From Bacteroidales bacterium (GTDB lineage Bacteria; Bacteroidota; Bacteroidia; Bacteroidales; WRLA01): DNA of 64,000 nucleotides. This document shows, one piece after another, positions 1 to 10,124 of the stretch. The notes beneath the pieces were generated by a model. The model saw nothing but the letters and a program-made list of their open reading frames with translations, ran no database searches and was not told the origin of the DNA. The stretch lies in the NCBI GenBank assembly GCA_965230045.1, contig OZ245940.1, positions 1,999,403 to 2,063,402 of the forward strand, written 5' to 3'. Every line of letters starts with the position of its first letter. Position 1 is the first letter of the stretch. Made by a program: the position numbers and the translations under genes.

Positions 1-135
1 AGCTTACTAAAGTAAGTGACTGGTTTCAATACCAAGAATAACGCTGAGATCGGACATTATGGACAAGCACTATTTAGTGTCTGTCTATAAAGTCGGGTTT
101 CTGATTCAGAATGTTCGAGGTCGAGGCATTTCTTT
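1..135. mobile_element. Two abutting fragments of MITE family A (subtype A1): the right part of one copy (1..70, cut by the window edge), a TATTTA junction (71..76), and the left ~57 bp of a second copy (77..~135)
   Basis: 1..70 matches the right half of the complete copies at 29554..29696 and 46931..47073 (cttactaaagtaag loop, aacgctgagatcggacattatggac terminus). 77.. starts with the family terminus gtgtctgtctataaagtcggg...gaggtcgaggcat and then breaks off. Confidence 0.6.
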
Positions 136-140
136 TTGAT

Positions 141-627
141 ATTTCACTATTGTTCGAGCATCATATCAGGAAGTTGCTAAAACAAAGGTTTATGCTTTTC
201 CCAAAAAAAATTCTGTATCCCAAACGGCATATATGAAAACAATATTTATCCTGACGTCGTTATTGATTATGGCAATGATTGTATTGGAGTCTATGATGTG
301 AAGTATAAAAAGTTTGATTTTTTAAATGGCGTTAATCGTGAAGACAGATTTCAGTTAATAACTTATGCTGCCTCATATCTTAGAAAATACAAAATTATTG
401 ACAGTGGAATCATATACCCTATTGGTGAATCAAATTGTGATAAAATCAATGCTATAAAACCTCAGTATCTTTGGGTTGGTAATATTAAGATTCCTTTTAA
501 GGTCAGGTTTTATAAAATCAAGCAAGATATTGCTTGGCAAAGGATAGTTGGTAATAATTTTTTGGATAAATTCTTTTGCAATTTGAAAGAAATTACTTCT
601 TCTACGGAAGAGAAATTGATTAATTGA
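141..627 (+). pseudogene. McrC-like / PD-(D/E)XK restriction-endonuclease C-terminal remnant, 5'-truncated by the MITEs and frameshifted
   Basis: Frame 1 reads ...NIYPDVVIDYGNDCIGVYDVKYKKFDF...REDRFQLITYA, a D...D-x-K core followed by a Q-x-x-x-Y motif as in McrC-type nucleases. Upstream, frame 3 reads LFEHHIRKLLKQRFMLFPKK up to an A8 run (203..210). No N-terminal half is present. Confidence 0.4.
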
Positions 628-639
628 AAAACACCATCT

Positions 640-1548
640 ATGTCCCAACAAGGCACCATAAAACGATATACGCTCATTATTGAGAAGATCAATAACGGAC
701 AGTTTCCTGGTTTTGAAGAGATCAGGAGCTTCCTTTTTGAACAGGGTTTTGAAGTCAGTAAGCGAACCGTGCAGCGCGATATTGAGCAAATACGCACGGA
801 GTTTGGGCTGGAGATTGTATATGAGCGCCATAGGAACGGTTACTTTATCGACTTTGAGGAAAGCTACAATACAGATGCCTTTTTTCGCTTTCTGGAAATT
901 GTAAATACGGCTGAAATGCTCAAAACAAGCCTCTCGGAGAGCAAAGAAAGCCTGCGCTATATTTCTTTTGATGATGGTGGAGGATTGCGGGGCGTTTCTC
1001 AACTGGGACCTTTGCTCAAAGCTGTACGCGAGAAATGCTATATTTCATTTCGGCATCAAAGCTATTTCAGGGATAAAGCCAGGCGATACACCATAAAACC
1101 CTATTTGCTGAGGGAGTATCTGAACCGCTGGTATGTTATTGGGCTGATCGGGCCAATGAAAGAATTCCGGACTTTTGGCATCGACCGGATCACCGAACTG
1201 GAAGTGAAAGCAAAATCTTTTGAGCCTCATGCCGAGCTGGATGCGCGGGAAGCTTTCCGGAATATTATTGGCTTGGTTTATTCAATGAGCGCTGTGCAAT
1301 CTGTTATCCTTTCTTTCACCCCGGAGCAGGGAAAATACATTAAGAGCCTGCCTTTGCATCACAGCCAGGAGGTTTTGATTGACGATGAAAAAGAATGCCG
1401 CATCAAGCTGAGAGTCATTCCAAATTTAGAACTCAAACAGCAAATCCTGATGCAGGGAGATCGCGTAAAGGTGATTGAGCCTCAGTGGCTGGTGGAGGAA
1501 ATCAAGGAAATTTTATTAAAAAGCCTGGAACGATATTCCTCAGAATAA
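640..1548 (+). CDS. WYL-domain transcriptional regulator (N-terminal wHTH + WYL + C-terminal extension)
   Basis: HTH segment SKRTVQRDIEQIRTEFG. WYL-type segment RYTIKPYLLREYLNRWYVIGL...FRTFGIDRI. C-terminal KVIEPQWLVEEIKE. Starts 12 nt after the upstream ORF stop. Confidence 0.85.
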   Translation: MSQQGTIKRYTLIIEKINNGQFPGFEEIRSFLFEQGFEVSKRTVQRDIEQIRTEFGLEIVYERHRNGYFIDFEESYNTDAFFRFLEIVNTAEMLKTSLSESKESLRYISFDDGGGLRGVSQLGPLLKAVREKCYISFRHQSYFRDKARRYTIKPYLLREYLNRWYVIGLIGPMKEFRTFGIDRITELEVKAKSFEPHAELDAREAFRNIIGLVYSMSAVQSVILSFTPEQGKYIKSLPLHHSQEVLIDDEKECRIKLRVIPNLELKQQILMQGDRVKVIEPQWLVEEIKEILLKSLERYSSE

Positions 1549-1566
1549 TTTTGTTTTTCGCTTGAA

Positions 1567-1602
1567 TACGCCATAGTTTGGCGTAGTACAGGGATAATTT
1601 TG
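1567..1602 (+). promoter_or_regulatory. Putative promoter/operator of the ATPase-protease operon: inverted repeat TACGCCA-N5-TGGCGTA (1567..1585) and a Bacteroidota-type -7 box TAATTTTG (1595..1602)
   Basis: The palindrome was read directly. TAATTTTG fits TAnnTTTG and lies 18 nt upstream of the ATG at 1620. Confidence 0.35.
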
Positions 1603-1619
1603 TCATCGATAAAAATAAT

Positions 1620-3665
1620 ATGATGGCAAAAGAAAACAATCAATCAAAACACATTCAACAGAAATACAAAGTCCTTGAGAATGCAAGGCAAACCCTCAAA
1701 AAAGAATTCATTGGCATAGATGGGATTATTGATGAAATCATTGAAAATGTAAGTGCCTGGTATTTGATGCCGCAACTTTTGGAGCGTCCGGTTGTGATCA
1801 ACCTTTGGGGTCTGACCGGAGTAGGAAAAACATCGGTGGTCAACCGTTTGGCCGAACTGCTCGATTATAAGAGTTTATACTACCGCTTCGATTTAGGCGA
1901 AAAAGAAAAGGGATATTCATTTGGGAGTACAGTGGATGAAATTAAAGAAAATGAAGAAGAAGAACCCATAATTTTCGCTCTGGATGAAATTCAGCAATGT
2001 CGGACAAAAATAGCTTCACGTCCTACTTTTCAGGACAAAAACCGGATGGTTTGGGATTTACTGGATAACGGCAAAATACAGTTTGTTGAATACTCACACG
2101 AACTTTGGCGAATTAAAAACCTGACATGGCGGCTCTACCAATTCATATTATTGGGCATCAAAGTAAAAGACGGCATTGTTTGTAGTCATAAGCAACAATA
2201 TCGGGATGAATTTGATGTGGATGATGATGAAGCGATTCTGCGTTTTATTCCGGAAAAGTATTATACATACATTATCAATCTGGCAGGCGATAAATTAAAT
2301 TTAAGCCTAAAGCAGGATCTTGAGAAAATCCTTTTGTCTGGAACCGCTGAAGAAAATATACAATTCCTTAAAAAAGTCATTAAAATAGGAAACGGGCCAA
2401 AAGTGGCGAATTTTTCAAAAGCTCTGATTTTTGTTTTGGGTAACCTGGATGAGGCATATAGCATGAGCGGCAATTACAGCTCTGATATGGATGCAGATGT
2501 TTTCCACCGTCTGTCAATCAAATTAAACGTTCCCAGAATCAAAAGTACCCTGGGCAAAATGTTTCGGGACGAACAGGTTGCCCGCCTTGGCAATATCCAT
2601 ATTATCTATCCGGCACTGAGCCGGAATTCCTATGAGCTGATTATTAAAAAAGAGCTTCATCAGCTTGCTCTTCAATTAAACAAACACTTTAATGTTCTGA
2701 TCGAATTTAGCGACAGTATTCATCAACTCATCTATGAAGAAGGTGTTTACCCCAGCCAGGGTGTTCGTCCGGTTTTTACCACCATTCATCAGATATTAAA
2801 AAGTACATGCAGTAACTTTTATGCGCAGATTTTAGCAAAAAATATAGATGCCGACAAACTTTTGTTTGAGCGTGCCGGCAACAAAATAAGGTGTATCTGC
2901 AAAAAGCTGAATCAAAGTGTATTTATACTGGAGTCAACCATAAAAACTTCCCTGGGCGATTTGCGCAAAAACAGAATGGACGATTTACAAGCAATTACTG
3001 CTGTTCACGAAAGTGGCCACGCTGTTTTATCCATTTCTTTGCTGGGAACAATTCCTGAAGCTGTTTATTCGGTCAGCTCCGATGCGGACAAGCATGGTTT
3101 TGTTTATTTCGAAGATGAATGGCCATTTATACCTCGCAAAGAAATCACGGCACGGGCAGCCGTATTGCTTGGAGGTTTTGTTGCTGAAAAGCTGATTTTT
3201 GGTCAGGAAAACCAAACCAATGGTTCCGAATCGGATATAAGCAAAGCAACTCAACTATTGCAATTTGCTTTTGCTAACTCAGGATTTGGAAAGCATCCCA
3301 TTCAATATGGTTTGCCGGTTTACGAGACGAAGGAAACCTACCATAATTATCAGGAAATGGAGGCTCAGGTCAAGGAGAGCCTGCAGAAATCTCTTCAACT
3401 GGCAGAACAGTGCCTCCAAAAGGAGTTTGCCCTCTTGCTAAAAATGTCTGATTACTTAAGTAAAAACAGCGTTCTTTCAAAAGCAAAAATCAAAGAATTA
3501 ACTGAAAAATACCTACAGGGATCAGGCGCTGAAAATGATAAATGGAACAGCTCTTTTTATCGGGATCAACTAAAAAACAAAATCCGGGAGTACGGAGACG
3601 AAGAACCTAACAATAAAGCAGTAGGTAATTCATTGATACTCAATAGCGATAAGAATACAGCCTAA
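1620..3665 (+). CDS. Soluble P-loop AAA+-type ATPase fused to an FtsH-type (M41) zinc metalloprotease domain; no TM segment
   Basis: Walker A LWGLTGVGKTS (K70, nt 1827..1829). Walker B PIIFALDEIQ. Lid-like MFRDEQVARLGNIHIIYPAL. Protease half: ITAVHESGHAV (HESGH at nt 3006..3020), AAVLLGGFVAEKLIFG, GSESDISKATQLL. These parallel FtsH HEAGHA / LLGGRAAEE / ASNDIxxAT. Confidence 0.85.
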   Translation: MMAKENNQSKHIQQKYKVLENARQTLKKEFIGIDGIIDEIIENVSAWYLMPQLLERPVVINLWGLTGVGKTSVVNRLAELLDYKSLYYRFDLGEKEKGYSFGSTVDEIKENEEEEPIIFALDEIQQCRTKIASRPTFQDKNRMVWDLLDNGKIQFVEYSHELWRIKNLTWRLYQFILLGIKVKDGIVCSHKQQYRDEFDVDDDEAILRFIPEKYYTYIINLAGDKLNLSLKQDLEKILLSGTAEENIQFLKKVIKIGNGPKVANFSKALIFVLGNLDEAYSMSGNYSSDMDADVFHRLSIKLNVPRIKSTLGKMFRDEQVARLGNIHIIYPALSRNSYELIIKKELHQLALQLNKHFNVLIEFSDSIHQLIYEEGVYPSQGVRPVFTTIHQILKSTCSNFYAQILAKNIDADKLLFERAGNKIRCICKKLNQSVFILESTIKTSLGDLRKNRMDDLQAITAVHESGHAVLSISLLGTIPEAVYSVSSDADKHGFVYFEDEWPFIPRKEITARAAVLLGGFVAEKLIFGQENQTNGSESDISKATQLLQFAFANSGFGKHPIQYGLPVYETKETYHNYQEMEAQVKESLQKSLQLAEQCLQKEFALLLKMSDYLSKNSVLSKAKIKELTEKYLQGSGAENDKWNSSFYRDQLKNKIREYGDEEPNNKAVGNSLILNSDKNTA

Positions 3666-3669
3666 AAAT

Positions 3670-4665
3670 ATGCAAGCCAAACTAATACCTTTGAAGAAAG
3701 TTTTTGAGAAGCATAATCTTTACAGGCTTTTTGATATTGACTTCGATAAGGCAGAGACGGTAGTGTGGCTATACAGACATGAACAACGTCTTTTCTGTCT
3801 CTTTAAATCCAAGGGCAAGTACCTGCTTCTTCATACCGATGGTTACCATTTTTGGTGTCGGGATACTGTCTATTGGGAGTATTACATTTATGATTCCTTG
3901 CATGAATCCTTCCGGAACATCAATCAGTTGTTTTACGATAGCATACCTTATTATGGTGTATGTAATCAAAGTAGAAGACAACTGGAGTATTGGATGAATA
4001 TAATCCCGGTTTGGGCAATATTGAGACCCAGATATTTATCAGTAATAGCCAGGGCGTATATACATGATCGTTTATCAAGCTTACAGGATACACCTAATTC
4101 AAATGAAGTGGCCTGGTTTGTGGATTCTGTGTATAAAATTTTCTGGAAAGAGTATTTTTTCAAAAAAAGCAGTAGCCAAATTGCTTCAATTCAGCCAATA
4201 TTACAGGATTTGGTCATAAAATGTATCGCTAAGAAAAAGTATCATGAAATTTACAAAAAAATTTGCAATGTAAAGACCGGATCATTTGTAATTGACTCTT
4301 TTACTTTGATTTATGATGATTGCAGTCAGATAGAATTTGAGATGGAAAGACAAAGATACAAGGAGATGATCAAGATATCGCCGGGAGATTACTCAGATTT
4401 TCTGATCAAAGAGGAGCAAATTCGGTCTAGTGACCAATTTTTGAATGAGCTTGAATGTAGCAATGGTGTAAAATTTACAAGTATAAAATTAAGGATTGAA
4501 TACGATTTGTACATTGATGGTTCGATGGAATTTGAGTACGATCAATACACGAATAAACTTGGTGAAAGATTTCGAGCCATTTATTATCAGATTGTTAAAG
4601 AGAAAATAATTGATGAAGATAGTATAGAAAACATGCCCATTTATAAGTTATTGAAGGGGACGTAG
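3670..4665 (+). CDS. Hypothetical 331-aa protein, operonic partner of the ATPase-protease
   Basis: A long ORF starting 4 nt after the upstream stop. Visibly rich in W/Y/F. No signal peptide, TM segment or catalytic motif recognised. Confidence 0.7.
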   Translation: MQAKLIPLKKVFEKHNLYRLFDIDFDKAETVVWLYRHEQRLFCLFKSKGKYLLLHTDGYHFWCRDTVYWEYYIYDSLHESFRNINQLFYDSIPYYGVCNQSRRQLEYWMNIIPVWAILRPRYLSVIARAYIHDRLSSLQDTPNSNEVAWFVDSVYKIFWKEYFFKKSSSQIASIQPILQDLVIKCIAKKKYHEIYKKICNVKTGSFVIDSFTLIYDDCSQIEFEMERQRYKEMIKISPGDYSDFLIKEEQIRSSDQFLNELECSNGVKFTSIKLRIEYDLYIDGSMEFEYDQYTNKLGERFRAIYYQIVKEKIIDEDSIENMPIYKLLKGT

Positions 4666-4704
4666 CATTGAAGCCCTGCGGGAAAGTGTGTAATTTAGCC
4701 CTGT

Positions 4705-6097
4705 GGGAGTATTCAGAAAAGTGTGTCAGCTGCTTGCCCTGCAACGCCCTGGAGCCTTGGCGGAAGGGCGTTGCAGGGCAAATATAAGCAATTATAAATA
4801 GCGGGCATAACGGTCTCCAAATTTTTCGATGAGTTCTCTCTGTATGGACCCCCAATTGAAGGCCTTGCGCTTCCAGCTTTTTTTGTTGTGCATCAATGCT
4901 AGATACAGCTGTTTTATCAGTCCTTTGTCGTTGCTCCAGGCTCCTTTGGACTTGGTTATCTTGCGCATAATACGATGCACTGCCTCAACTGGATTGGTGG
5001 TGTAGATCATCCGCCTGATATGATGCCCATAGTCCATAAACGCCATCAGTTCCTCCCAGTTTTCCTCCCATTTTGGACGGATGTTTTTGTATTTGCCGTC
5101 CCATTTCTGTCCAAATGATATTAAAGCTGTTTCGGCTTGTTGCCTGTTTGCTGCTGTATAGATCTTACGCAGATCAGAGCAAAGAGCCTTCCTGTCTTTG
5201 TCGCTTACAAAGCGGGTAGATGTGCGTACCATATGCACTATGCAGCGCTGTACAATGGCTTTGGGATAAACCTGGCCTATAACCCCGGAAAAGCCTTTAA
5301 GCCCATCTACACAAAAAAACAAAACTTCCTCTACGCCACGTTCCTTAAGGTCTTCCAGGATCATGCCCCACTGGTTGGCCCCTTCTGATTCGTTTATGTA
5401 AAGCCCAAGGATATCGCGTTGGCCTTCAGCGTCTATGCCATAACATGTATAGATGGCTTTGCTGATAATATGACCCGCTTCGCGGACTTTAAAGTGAACA
5501 GCATCAAGGTATATGACACTGTAGCACGGAAATAGCAACCGCTGCTGCCATTGGGTAATTTCAGGCCATACACGGTCGGTTACCGAACTGATTACTCCGG
5601 CGCTTATTTCAAGCCCATATAGGTGCTGCAACTGGTAGCGCACATCCTCAACTGATTGACCGCGGGCGTATAGGCTTAGGATTATTTCATCTACCCCGTT
5701 CCCAAGGTCCCTGTCCCACTTTTTAACCAAAATCGGCTCATGGTCGCCTTGGCGGTCACGCGGCGTGCGTACCTGCAGCGCTCCGGCAGCACTGCGTACT
5801 TTTTTCTCCGTATAGCCATTGCGCCGGTTGCCGCTGTCAACCTTTTGGCTTAAACTATGATTTATCTCGCCCTCTAAGGCTGCATTTACCATAGTTTGAA
5901 GCATCTCGCTGAAAACACTGCCTTCTCCAAATAAGGATTCTCCACTGTATAAGCGACTTAGTACTCTTTCTCGTAAATGCGCATCTGGTATCAACTCTTC
6001 CATGCGCGGGGATTTCTTGTTTTTCTTTCTTGTCATGTGTCAAATGTATTAATTCAGTTCTAATTCCCAAACATGACACACTTTTTTGAACAGCCTC
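4705..6097 (-). mobile_element. Intact IS256-family insertion sequence (1393 bp) with an 8-bp target-site duplication AGCCCTGT
   Basis: Direct repeats AGCCCTGT at 4697..4704 and 6098..6105. Imperfect terminal inverted repeats gggagtattcagaaaagtgtgtca / gaggctgttcaaaaaagtgtgtca (19 of 24 positions match). Confidence 0.9.
4792..6036 (-). CDS. IS256-family (mutator-type) transposase
   Basis: Typical IS256 segments: YLDAVHFKVRE...AIYTCYGIDAEGQRDILGLY, FFCVDGLKGF, VQRCIVHMVR, YTTNPVEAVHR. Confidence 0.95.
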   Translation of the reverse strand: MTRKKNKKSPRMEELIPDAHLRERVLSRLYSGESLFGEGSVFSEMLQTMVNAALEGEINHSLSQKVDSGNRRNGYTEKKVRSAAGALQVRTPRDRQGDHEPILVKKWDRDLGNGVDEIILSLYARGQSVEDVRYQLQHLYGLEISAGVISSVTDRVWPEITQWQQRLLFPCYSVIYLDAVHFKVREAGHIISKAIYTCYGIDAEGQRDILGLYINESEGANQWGMILEDLKERGVEEVLFFCVDGLKGFSGVIGQVYPKAIVQRCIVHMVRTSTRFVSDKDRKALCSDLRKIYTAANRQQAETALISFGQKWDGKYKNIRPKWEENWEELMAFMDYGHHIRRMIYTTNPVEAVHRIMRKITKSKGAWSNDKGLIKQLYLALMHNKKSWKRKAFNWGSIQRELIEKFGDRYARYL

Positions 6098-6173
6098 AGC
6101 CCTGTACTAAGAAGTGAGACCATTATAACTGTTACTCATTAGGTAAACAAGCTCAATTATTTTCATTTATAAT

Positions 6174-6668
6174 TTAGAATGAGTCAAATCCTTTTTGTGT
6201 TAAAACCATGCAAAAAACATGTCTGTCTTCAGTTGTAATTAAATCATTTTCAACCAATCTCTCAATTGCTCTTTCAATCAAAGCATTTTCTTTAGGATTT
6301 AACCATTTACTTAAGTTAAAGTTAATCCATCTATAATCGACAACATGATTAACTTTTGAATTAGTATCAGCAAATTGTTGCATAATTATACTACCAATTC
6401 TTTCAATTACTTCATCTTCATTAATTGGGTAGATTGCATCAAATCCTTTCTCAGTCAAAACTAAACAGAATCCACTTCTGTCATCGGTTTTTATTAAACC
6501 ATCATTTACTAAATCATTAATTGCTGGATTAATTAAATTTTGCTCTTTGGCGTTTAACTGTCTTAATAGTACTTGGTTTATCCACCTTTCTTGAATTACG
6601 TGCTTGGGTTTTGAATTTGTTTCTACAAACTGATTCATTATCAAATTTGCAATATCATTTTGTGTCAT
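6174..6668 (-). CDS. Hypothetical protein built from two tandem ~80-aa repeats
   Basis: The two halves align (QFVETNSKPKHVIQERWIN...LVNDGLIKTDDRSGFCLVLTEKGFD versus QFADTNSKVNHVVDYRWIN...LVENDLITTEDRHVFCMVLTQKGFD). The DNA is AT-rich relative to its neighbours. Confidence 0.65.
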   Translation of the reverse strand: MTQNDIANLIMNQFVETNSKPKHVIQERWINQVLLRQLNAKEQNLINPAINDLVNDGLIKTDDRSGFCLVLTEKGFDAIYPINEDEVIERIGSIIMQQFADTNSKVNHVVDYRWINFNLSKWLNPKENALIERAIERLVENDLITTEDRHVFCMVLTQKGFDSF

Positions 6669-6867
6669 GTTTTATTGTTTTATAATTAATTCTACTTTAC
6701 GAACTTAATTTTTGTGGTTTAATGGTCTAATTTGCTTTAAACGAGTAAAAAGGGTTGAAAGATGGATATTCCGGACTAAACCGACCCACCCGACCGGCTG
6801 AAATAAACAGCAATAAAAAGCCATCAAAGACTGCCAATCCGGCGAATACTGCCCCATTGAAACGGAA

Positions 6868-6946
6868 AAAGGTACTTCAGGCAAACAAATCCGGGCTATG
6901 TTGACCCTTATTTATCGCTTTTTTTTGCCCGGCACGCAATCACAAG
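6868..6946. repeat. 79-bp direct repeat, copy 1 (partner at 8382..8460)
   Basis: aaaggtacttcaggcaaacaaatccgggctatgttgacccttatttatcgcttttttttgcccggcacgcaatcacaag versus the near-identical string at 8382..8460. Confidence 0.8.
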
Positions 6947-7303
6947 TTTGTTAATTTCTTCGATACTTAAGCCGGTGATTTCCTGGATAATATCAATTTC
7001 CATTCCTTTAAGGAGCAGATTCCTTGCTAAGGATAATTTTTCTTCTTTTCTGCCTTCTTCCCTGCCTTTAATTAGTGTTTGTCCATAGAGTCGAGAGTTT
7101 GCTCTATAAAGTTCAAATTCAAGGCGTGTGAAAAATCTAAACCGCAGTATACTAGGGTATATGAGGATTTAGATTTTGAGCAACAACGCAGAAGTTGGAC
7201 TTTATAGACGAACTCTAATTAGCCCCTTTTCTTCTGCCCAGTCAATGGAGTTTTTGATATCGTTGAGGATATCCGGATTGAAATTGTATTTTCTCCCGGT
7301 CAT
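6908..7303 (-). pseudogene. Truncated Rpn-family C-terminal paralogue, split by a MITE
   Basis: Reads MTGRKYNFNPDILNDIKNSIDWAEEKGLI, then the MITE, then KGREEGRKEEKLSLARNLLLKGMEIDIIQEITGLSIEE. This matches the C-terminus of the intact neighbour at 7308..8270. Confidence 0.7.
7075..7215. mobile_element. MITE family A, subtype A3, with a TAATTA target duplication (7069..7074 and 7216..7221)
   Basis: Termini gtgtttgtccatagagtcg ... ggactttatagacgaactc. The same element occurs at 29703..29843. The uninterrupted homologous site is at 7532..7537. Confidence 0.85.
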
Positions 7304-9015: not shown

Positions 9016-9107
9016 ACTTAATTAATGATGCGTTGCCTTATTAAAATTGTTCCACCGTTTTGGTAATTCGGTTTTATCCTTTTACCTTTACAAACAAACG
9101 AACTCTT

Positions 9108-10124
9108 ATGTCACGAAAGATTGTAATGCTTGTTGATGAGCGGACACTGCCAAACCTGCAGTTTATACATGAATTTGGCGCCGGTGCAGATGAATACATC
9201 TTTATAACCACCCGAAAAATGGAAGTGCCGGACGCCAATCGGGTGAACTGGATTATAAAATCTGCTGGAATTGATGATGAAAAATGTAGCCGGCTGGTAT
9301 GTGACCCTCACGGTATTAGCCAAACTTCCCAGCAACTTTCAGGTTTGAACCTTGATTTGGCTAATGAGTACCTGGTGCATATTACTTGCGGAACAAAAAT
9401 TATGGCTTTGGCGGCCTATAGTTTTTTCGGTCGTTTCCCGAAAGCAAGGATTATCTTCAGCTTTTTGGGTGAAGGCTCATACCGTCAGCTCCATCCGCAT
9501 ATTACGAGGGCGGAGCATGAATATAAAACCAAACCCTCGCTCAAAGCTTCATTGCTTGCGCATGGGTTAAAAATAGCTTTTGCAGACAGGAAGCTAACAG
9601 ATGCAGGCATGGGGCGTCATTTGATGGATGAATGCATCAAAAACAATAACCGTCAAAACCATATTCCTGAGATACGAAAGGCCATGAAATGCATCACGCC
9701 CGAAGAGCGATCCTATTTTAGCGGAGGTTGGTTTGAAGAATATGTTTATGATCGTATCAAAACTGAGTTGAAACTGGCTGATGATCAGATTGCTATGAAA
9801 GTAAGCGTGCGAAAAGCAGAAGTTTATAATGAGTTTGATGTGATTTTCCTCTACCGTGACCGCATTCATGTGGTAGAGTGCAAAGCATATTTTTCACGGC
9901 ATAACCTCAAAACAAAGGTAGAAGGAGCTTTGTATAAACTGGGTGCTTTGGATGATAAATTTGGCATGAACACCCGATCTTTGTTTTTTACAAACCTTGA
10001 TTTTGCGCGTGACGATATCCGTTTGAATGAAGTGTTGCGGGCACGGGCCAAGGACCTGAAGGTGCGCTTTGTTGATATGTCGGATATACGGGAAAGGCGC
10101 CTGAACCTTTCCGTACATGAATAA
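9108..10124 (+). CDS. CARF-like domain + PD-(D/E)XK nuclease protein (Card1/Can2-like, DUF1887-type)
   Basis: N-terminus KIVMLVDERTLPNLQFI...EYIFITT follows the DUF1887/CARF start pattern. C-terminal nuclease core EFDVIFLYRDRIHVVECKAY (nt 9831..9890). The ATG at 9108 is preferred over the TTG at 9060. Confidence 0.7.
   Translation: MSRKIVMLVDERTLPNLQFIHEFGAGADEYIFITTRKMEVPDANRVNWIIKSAGIDDEKCSRLVCDPHGISQTSQQLSGLNLDLANEYLVHITCGTKIMALAAYSFFGRFPKARIIFSFLGEGSYRQLHPHITRAEHEYKTKPSLKASLLAHGLKIAFADRKLTDAGMGRHLMDECIKNNNRQNHIPEIRKAMKCITPEERSYFSGGWFEEYVYDRIKTELKLADDQIAMKVSVRKAEVYNEFDVIFLYRDRIHVVECKAYFSRHNLKTKVEGALYKLGALDDKFGMNTRSLFFTNLDFARDDIRLNEVLRARAKDLKVRFVDMSDIRERRLNLSVHE

Follow-up and report, generated by a model that had tools for sequence, protein, structure and literature searches.

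A single-genus orphan gene behind a WYL-linked AAA+/M41 protease: a candidate cargo gene in a variable operon slot

In a Bacteroidales genome, a gene for a soluble protease of the AAA+/M41 type is followed almost immediately by an open reading frame (ORF) whose 331-aa product resembles no familiar protein. The question raised by this arrangement is what the second protein is to the first: a partner on which the protease depends, or a gene that shares its operon and little else. The window that we analysed is a stretch of 64,000 nt from contig OZ245940.1, and positions refer to it unless they follow a locus number. The orphan ORF, P0001, runs from ATG to TAG at 3670–4665 (+ strand). At its junction with the protease gene (3663–3672, + strand), which reads TAA-AAAT-ATG, the stop codon of the 681-aa protease ORF at 3663–3665 is followed by a gap of 4 nt and by the P0001 start codon at 3670. 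The coordinates, length and 4-nt gap in the original prediction, which was made from the sequence alone, are all confirmed. That prediction went on to describe P0001 as almost certainly co-expressed with the protease and as its probable sensor, substrate or toxin, and for this reason as the most informative component of the module.

We find that P0001 is a genuine protein-coding gene. At its GC content of 34.5%, where ~7% of random codons would be stops, the chance of 331 open codons is ~2e-11 per start. Its codon-frame score is +0.16 in the annotated frame and −0.65 and −1.08 in the other frames. This score is below that of the genome's long ORFs (0.32 ± 0.07), and the GC content is below that of the genome (42.1%); low GC together with a weaker codon score fits an acquired island gene. 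The product is soluble and aromatic-rich. Its richness in Trp, Tyr and Phe, remarked on from the start, is borne out by the counts: W+Y+F make up 16.6% of P0001 compared to 9.7% and 11.6% in its two neighbours, and its aromatic content is within the top 2.5% of this genome's ORFs of at least 250 aa. The predicted absence of a signal peptide or TM segment also holds: all 19-residue Kyte-Doolittle windows, those at the N-terminus included, score at or below 1.1.

The protein appears to have two dissimilar parts. The N-terminal domain (residues 1 to ~165; 3670–4164, + strand) is basic, with a pI of 8.9, and contains 21% W/Y/F; it is the sole part common to the 177-aa relatives described below (P0127–P0130). 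The C-terminal region (residues ~206–331; 4285–4662, + strand) is acidic, with a pI of 4.5; besides the window, one other genome of the genus (G003) has it, up to residue 309, and it is seen nowhere else. A candidate internal tandem repeat in the C-terminal part (IEFEMERQRY / MEFEYDQYTN) was rejected, since the similarity covers 7 residues only (BLASTP E=0.16).

P0001 is an orphan whose relatives are confined to one bacterial genus. An exhaustive phmmer search of 1.84 billion representative proteins returned three matches, all from this genus: two fragments of the G003 copy and the 177-aa protein P0127, which matches P0001 residues 1–163 at 30% identity (phmmer E=9.8e-14). No further relative came from a profile search of 5.8 billion proteins. 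Among 61 related genomes, a relative was found in only three, all of them among the five genomes of the genus; two of these five have neither P0001 nor the protease. A marginal match in genome G025 (E=9e-4) falls within an ORF of 740 aa whose sequence, judged by eye, resembles a TonB-dependent receptor, and we treated it as compositional noise. No P0001 relative was found in GenBank phages or PLSDB plasmids with tblastn, nor in IMG/VR and JGI contigs in pattern scans with alignment A2, and Rfam gave nothing in window positions 1–7000.

The original description of P0001 as a protein of no recognisable family withstood phmmer and profile searches against every collection used. Pfam, NCBIfam and PADLOC returned no family for P0001 at E≤1, and PHROGs returned just noise (E≥0.2). 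The best phmmer match among PDB chains, at E=1.6, is also noise, and the A2 profile had no PDB match at E≤10. When the two halves of P0001 were searched separately, and when P0127 was searched, no family appeared at E≤10. No housekeeping or other family matched P0001 in these searches. Structure prediction was no more revealing: AlphaFold2 models of the full-length protein (4-sequence alignment, pLDDT 36.8) and of the N-domain (6 sequences, pLDDT 36.0) are both unusable. What the alignments of P0001 with its P0127-type relatives (A1 and A2) do show is that an aromatic/hydrophobic core is kept at ~30% identity, and that K46, D75, H78, E79, D133 and R134 are conserved besides this core. A reading of the N-domain as a PD-(D/E)XK nuclease was considered and rejected: there is no Pfam match, motif or profile signal, the invariant A2 residues include no acidic-x-Lys in predicted strands, and hhalign comparison of P0001 with the PDDEXK_4 proteins of two related loci (L031 and L033) gave probabilities below 1%.

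The genes upstream of P0001 are easier to classify. The protease, P0002 (1620–3665, + strand, 681 aa), is a soluble fusion of an AAA+ ATPase with a Clp-type lid and a Peptidase_M41 domain, and its Walker A (GLTGVGKT), Walker B (ALDE) and zinc-binding (HESGH) motifs are intact. Before it lies P0003 (640–1548, + strand), an HTH-WYL-WCX regulator of BrxR/CapW-type architecture (Pfam HTH_11, WYL and WCX). Ahead of the protease gene, at 1567–1602 (+ strand, alignment A3), we find the dyad TACGCCA-N5-TGGCGTA together with the −7 box TAATTTTG; this region is conserved in G003 and in part in the more distant G004. From its sequence, the region probably serves both protease and P0001 as promoter and operator. 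A regulator of this type directly upstream and an inverted repeat in the promoter region together constitute the BrxR/CapW-type setting. The box at 1595–1602 is the sole + strand match to TAnnTTTG, the Bacteroidetes −7 box, within 1546–3686. Because no other occurs on that strand between this box and the P0001 start, P0001 probably uses the operon promoter. The 4-nt gap, the lack of an internal −7 box and a junction that can still be traced in a diverged relative make it likely that P0001 is co-transcribed with the protease; since this is something that we infer, we prefer "likely" to the "almost certainly" of the original prediction.

PADLOC has no strong match for P0002, the weak one being to DolB (E=6e-7 over 85 residues), and no match at E≤1e-10 was found in GenBank phages. 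In the literature on WYL regulators and M41/FtsH proteases, we found no description of such an operon; the nearest mention concerns some Moraxellaceae, in which an ftsH gene is under the control of the WYL regulator DdaA (PMC12392091).

The operon lies in an island whose order is mutS, tRNA-Gly, tRNA-Leu, pieces of Schlafen/AlbA_2 genes, the operon itself, an IS256 element, an Rpn-type PDDEXK_2 gene and a Card1-like CARF nuclease gene, beyond which housekeeping genes resume. The IS256-family element (4697–6103, − strand; transposase at 4792–6036, Pfam Transposase_mut) begins 31 nt past the P0001 stop and leaves the ORF uninterrupted. A second copy of 1,407 bp, 100% identical, is present elsewhere in the genome. 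Positions 4671–4690, 6 nt past the P0001 stop, resemble the left end of the adjoining element, and short sequences like the end of the element are found at five further genomic sites. Beyond the element, the ORF at 6174–6668 (164 aa) is winged-helix-like and very AT-rich (28.9% GC). The Card1-like gene (9060–10124; Pfam CARF_Card1 and Card1_endonuc) has no cas10 or cyclase gene among the few annotated ORFs around it.

If P0001 were the dedicated partner of the protease, it should recur where the protease recurs. Homologues of the protease number more than 2,000, with at most ~52% identity outside the genus, and the family is patchy: it was found in 15 of 401 sampled genomes of the order and in 10 of 401 of the phylum. 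We examined 28 loci around protease homologues, 26 of them outside the genus. A WYL regulator adjoins the protease in ~24 of the 28, so that the conserved unit is the WYL regulator plus the soluble AAA+/M41 protease. None of the 26 loci outside the genus contains a P0001 relative detectable by phmmer or hhalign, and hhalign probabilities for 57 co-located ORFs against P0001 were all below 5%. The conservation of this pair extends across the phylum, as judged from window 640–3665 and from L002, L003, L013, L028–L038 and L054–L064.

What occupies the neighbourhood of the protease instead varies from locus to locus. In one architecture, found at six loci, the order is WYL, DUF262, DUF262, RNase T, protease. 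Two examples of this five-gene operon are L061 8681–13213 and L062 8740–14049; in one metagenomic contig its neighbours are the BREX genes BrxL and PglZ, and in a second contig they are HNH, REase-ARP and CHAT genes. In the second architecture, WYL and protease are followed either by nothing co-directional for 94–418 nt or by a tightly spaced gene that differs among loci. Many loci consist of WYL and protease alone, some with a convergent gene downstream. Where a gene starts within 30 nt of the protease, it is a different one each time: a 136-aa protein, Metallophos, PDDEXK_4, a 143-aa protein or a 132-aa protein. Occupants of this slot include PDDEXK_4 nucleases in L031 (gap of 4 nt) and L033 (as second gene), a calcineurin-like phosphoesterase in L030 (4-nt overlap), Tpt1/KptA in L036, and small orphans of 132–147 aa in L028, L033 and L064.

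Some of these other orphans share the unusual composition of P0001. Four of them (L028 10927–11337, L064 8482–8925, L029 2767–3327 and L063 8652–9023) follow other proteases and are aromatic, with 15–20% W/Y/F; they are unrelated, with no sequence or profile similarity detectable. Genes can also be exchanged on the other side of the protease. In L032 and L059, an unrelated gene lies between the regulator and the protease, and the exchangeable genes in this position also include DUF429. The one in L059 is a 331-aa ORF that matches P0001 in length and is unrelated to it.

Within the genus, the only close copy of P0001, at ~95% nucleotide identity, is that of G003, and it is broken. An ISL3 element (L004 10047–11332) is inserted in the 8 bp that correspond to window 3665–3672, with the target duplicated; these 8 bp cover the spacer of 4 nt together with the start codon of P0001, which is thereby uncoupled from the operon, and the protease is spared. 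An IS66 element splits the same copy near codon 230. Further downstream, G003 joins window 4596 straight to 6760 (L004 15183–15339), after P0001 codon 309, and therefore lacks the last 22 P0001 codons, the IS256 element and the 6174–6668 ORF. For these 22 codons (4597–4662), a counterpart was found nowhere. The G003 protease is intact, with a full-length product of 680 aa that is 95% identical to P0002, and so is the WYL regulator. Because G003 keeps its protease while P0001 is broken, P0001 is dispensable: the protease does not require it.

The reverse loss is seen in the G004 lineage (six assemblies), which has a WYL gene, a 70–84-aa ORF and a 177-aa P0001-like ORF, and in which the protease is absent. 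Its WYL gene is orthologous to P0003 (72% identity), and it retains the promoter region, the −7 box and the ATGATG start of the protease gene. When the whole protease gene was matched locally to the DNA in between, the best-scoring segment was its last ~33 nt, which immediately precede the P0001-like gene; 6 of 500 shuffles reach this score. Given the kept ATGATG start and the ~33 nt of protease 3' end, the ancestor probably had WYL, protease and a P0001-like gene. The sequence remnants suggest that the protease was probably lost later by internal deletion in this lineage, and that P0001 was probably already linked to the operon in the ancestor of the genus. The apparent scar of this deletion surrounds the 70–84-aa ORF, at L010 (in G004) 9398–9643 and at L041–L045 4755–5000.

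These comparisons weigh against the proposal that P0001 is the informative sensor, substrate or toxin partner of the protease. Outside the genus it has no relative in the 26 loci, and within the genus the protease of G003 is intact next to a P0001 broken by insertion, while the G004 relative persists with no protease. Each gene thus persists without the other, unlike the members of an obligate toxin-antitoxin-like pair. The original prediction was to be refuted if P0001 did not recur beside homologues of the 681-aa protease; outside the genus it does not, and only the closest relatives are an exception. In two of the three P0001-bearing lineages, the gene has decayed, by IS insertion in G003 and to the 177-aa form in G004.

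Despite this decay, P0001 is under moderate purifying selection. Between the window and G003, dN/dS is 0.41 and 0.38 for its two alignable pieces, compared to 0.21 for the protease and 0.105 for the WYL gene; the P0001 values include time after the G003 copy broke, and constraint on the intact gene may be stronger or weaker. The binomial probability for dN/dS≥1 is 0.0025. P0001 evolves at 2–4 times the rate of its neighbours, faster than WYL and protease together (Fisher P=0.008). We reason that the identities of 72% for WYL and 30% for P0001 in the G004 lineage agree with the ~4-fold rate difference measured between the window and G003. Among polymorphic codons within that lineage, synonymous and non-synonymous counts are 2/6 for the 177-aa ORF, 0/5 for the small ORF and 8/3 for WYL, from which the 177-aa remnant looks neutral and the WYL regulator still constrained.

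Several known systems resemble parts of this locus. Defence systems of many kinds are reported as neighbours of BrxR-family WYL regulators (Picton et al. 2022, PMC9122601). With BrxR/CapW-type operons, as described there and in Blankenchip et al. 2022, the window shares the upstream HTH-WYL-WCX regulator, the inverted repeat in the promoter gap, downstream cargo that varies and the defence-island setting. However, its cargo is not BREX or CBASS but a soluble AAA+/M41 protease plus an orphan, and its regulation and defence role are putative. P0002 has the M41 peptidase domain with HESGH in common with FtsH, Yme1 and AFG3L2 (MEROPS M41); unlike them, it lacks a TM segment and has a Clp-type ATPase and lid. 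FtsH-type proteases are also not known to be followed by a dedicated partner like P0001.

Two-component defence systems offer another comparison. IetAS is a two-gene pair of ATPase and protease, and DolB of Dodola is ClpB-like. What the window shares with such systems is an AAA-type ATPase and a protease activity encoded in a defence island, next to a protein of unassigned role. P0002 differs in uniting ATPase and protease in one polypeptide, the extra gene P0001 is not conserved, and it matches neither IetS nor DolA (0 PADLOC families). The PDDEXK_4 nucleases (PF14281; L031 and L033) occupy the same slot and strand as P0001, are of similar size at 352–356 aa and, in L031, are set off by the same 4-nt gap, yet P0001 has no sequence or profile similarity to them, and P0001 and P0127 share no conserved D...(D/E)xK. 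Finally, like orphan accessory genes of defence islands, P0001 is restricted to a single genus, fast-evolving, low in GC, flanked by IS elements and often lost; unlike them, it shows purifying selection, and it is not placed at random in the island but has an old, exact coupling to a conserved operon.

The reading that we favour, with a probability of about 0.5, is that P0001 is a cargo gene, specific to its lineage and dispensable, which lies at the 3' end of a WYL-regulated defence-island operon, is co-transcribed with it and is now decaying. P0001 would be transcribed from the operator-bearing promoter at ~1567–1602 and translated directly after the protease, so that relief of repression by the WYL protein would release protease and P0001 together. 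Its product would be a soluble protein of two parts, a basic and very aromatic N-domain of ~165 aa and an acidic C-terminal part, encoded in a variable slot that elsewhere is empty or filled by unrelated enzymes and orphans. A defence role for the operon is suggested by association: the island is tRNA-linked and carries Schlafen/AlbA_2, Rpn and Card1-like genes, and cargo at related loci resembles SspE/GmrSD and DEDDh. It is tempting to speculate, from position and analogy, that P0001 is an add-on effector or target-recognition module, and its role may be analogous to those of the nucleases and phosphoesterases of the same slot. Only one intact copy is on record, and the gene may be on its way out.

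That last point leads to the strongest competitor, a less likely account in which P0001 is a decaying hitchhiker, a leftover without current function, formerly useful or picked up by accident, that is evolving towards loss and is still intact here by luck. The broken or truncated copies in two of three lineages, the neutral-looking polymorphism of the 177-aa form and the two further genomes of the genus without P0001 would all be expected if this were so, as would the highest dN/dS of the operon, the low GC, a codon score under the genome norm and the location in an IS hot spot. Yet its dN/dS is significantly below 1 (P=0.0025), the 331-codon frame has stayed intact despite an AT-rich context, and an aromatic/hydrophobic core kept at 30% identity across the genus argues for long-term selection for a folded protein. 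Such protein-level conservation (E=1e-13), seen with a relative that can no longer be aligned as DNA, also bears on whether P0001 is a gene at all. The lack of a family match and of a confident structure model could be due to a chance or mis-called frame in island DNA, but 331 open codons at 34.5% GC, dN/dS significantly below 1 and a positive codon signal in the annotated frame alone effectively refute this.

Could P0001 instead be an obligate partner of the protease, as substrate, adaptor, sensor or protease-controlled toxin, that has diverged past detection elsewhere? We consider this unlikely, and more so than decay. The 4-nt coupling and a linkage since the genus ancestor would suit a partner, several genes after other proteases are small aromatic-rich orphans (15–20% W/Y/F), and we reason that at ~50% protease identity a homologue evolving at 2–4 times the rate could escape sequence detection. 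Against this, many WYL-protease loci have no co-directional gene and others have recognisable, unrelated enzymes; hhalign was negative against the co-located ORFs; the G003 protease is under purifying selection (dN/dS 0.21) although P0001 is doubly disrupted; and the six assemblies of the G004 lineage retain a P0001-like ORF with no protease. Some of the same facts bear on an immunity or antitoxin-type protein that neutralises the protease or a neighbouring effector. Its orphan status, fast evolution, aromatic richness and position directly behind an enzyme potentially harmful to the cell are reminiscent of such proteins, but in G003, where ISL3 cuts P0001 off and IS66 splits it, the intact protease is tolerated with no need for it; moreover, most protease homologues have no such neighbour, and no toxin-like gene adjoins P0001 in the window. 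We regard this as quite improbable. Slightly more doubtful than an obligate partner in general, but ahead of immunity, is a bolder conjecture: P0001 would be the founder of an effector or phage-sensing module with a new fold, one that can work only in combination with the WYL-controlled AAA+/M41 protease and that this protease might, for instance, activate or remove on infection. The other aromatic-rich orphans after proteases would be its counterparts, related in structure but past recognition in sequence. If this were true, the operon would be a defence system of three components, the third of them hypervariable.

With the cargo reading preferred, P0001 is an unclassifiable accessory gene within a known kind of regulated island operon, and its novelty is modest. 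Taken alone, as an orphan with one intact copy on record, it is of limited importance. Its value is as a marker: regulator and protease are conserved, while the adjoining slot exchanges nucleases, phosphoesterases and orphans. This pattern of exchange is the one expected of a regulatory or processing cassette that serves interchangeable effectors, and the WYL and AAA+/M41 pair does look like such a cassette bracketing variable cargo. If the protease family proves to be a defence or stress module, P0001-like proteins would be candidate interchangeable outputs. If not, the locus would still record a datable loss of an orphan gene, in three ways within one genus: by an IS at the start codon, by an IS inside the gene, and by truncation after deletion of a neighbour. 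In either case, the conserved WYL and AAA+/M41 cassette with its exchangeable cargo is a more interesting object than P0001 itself.
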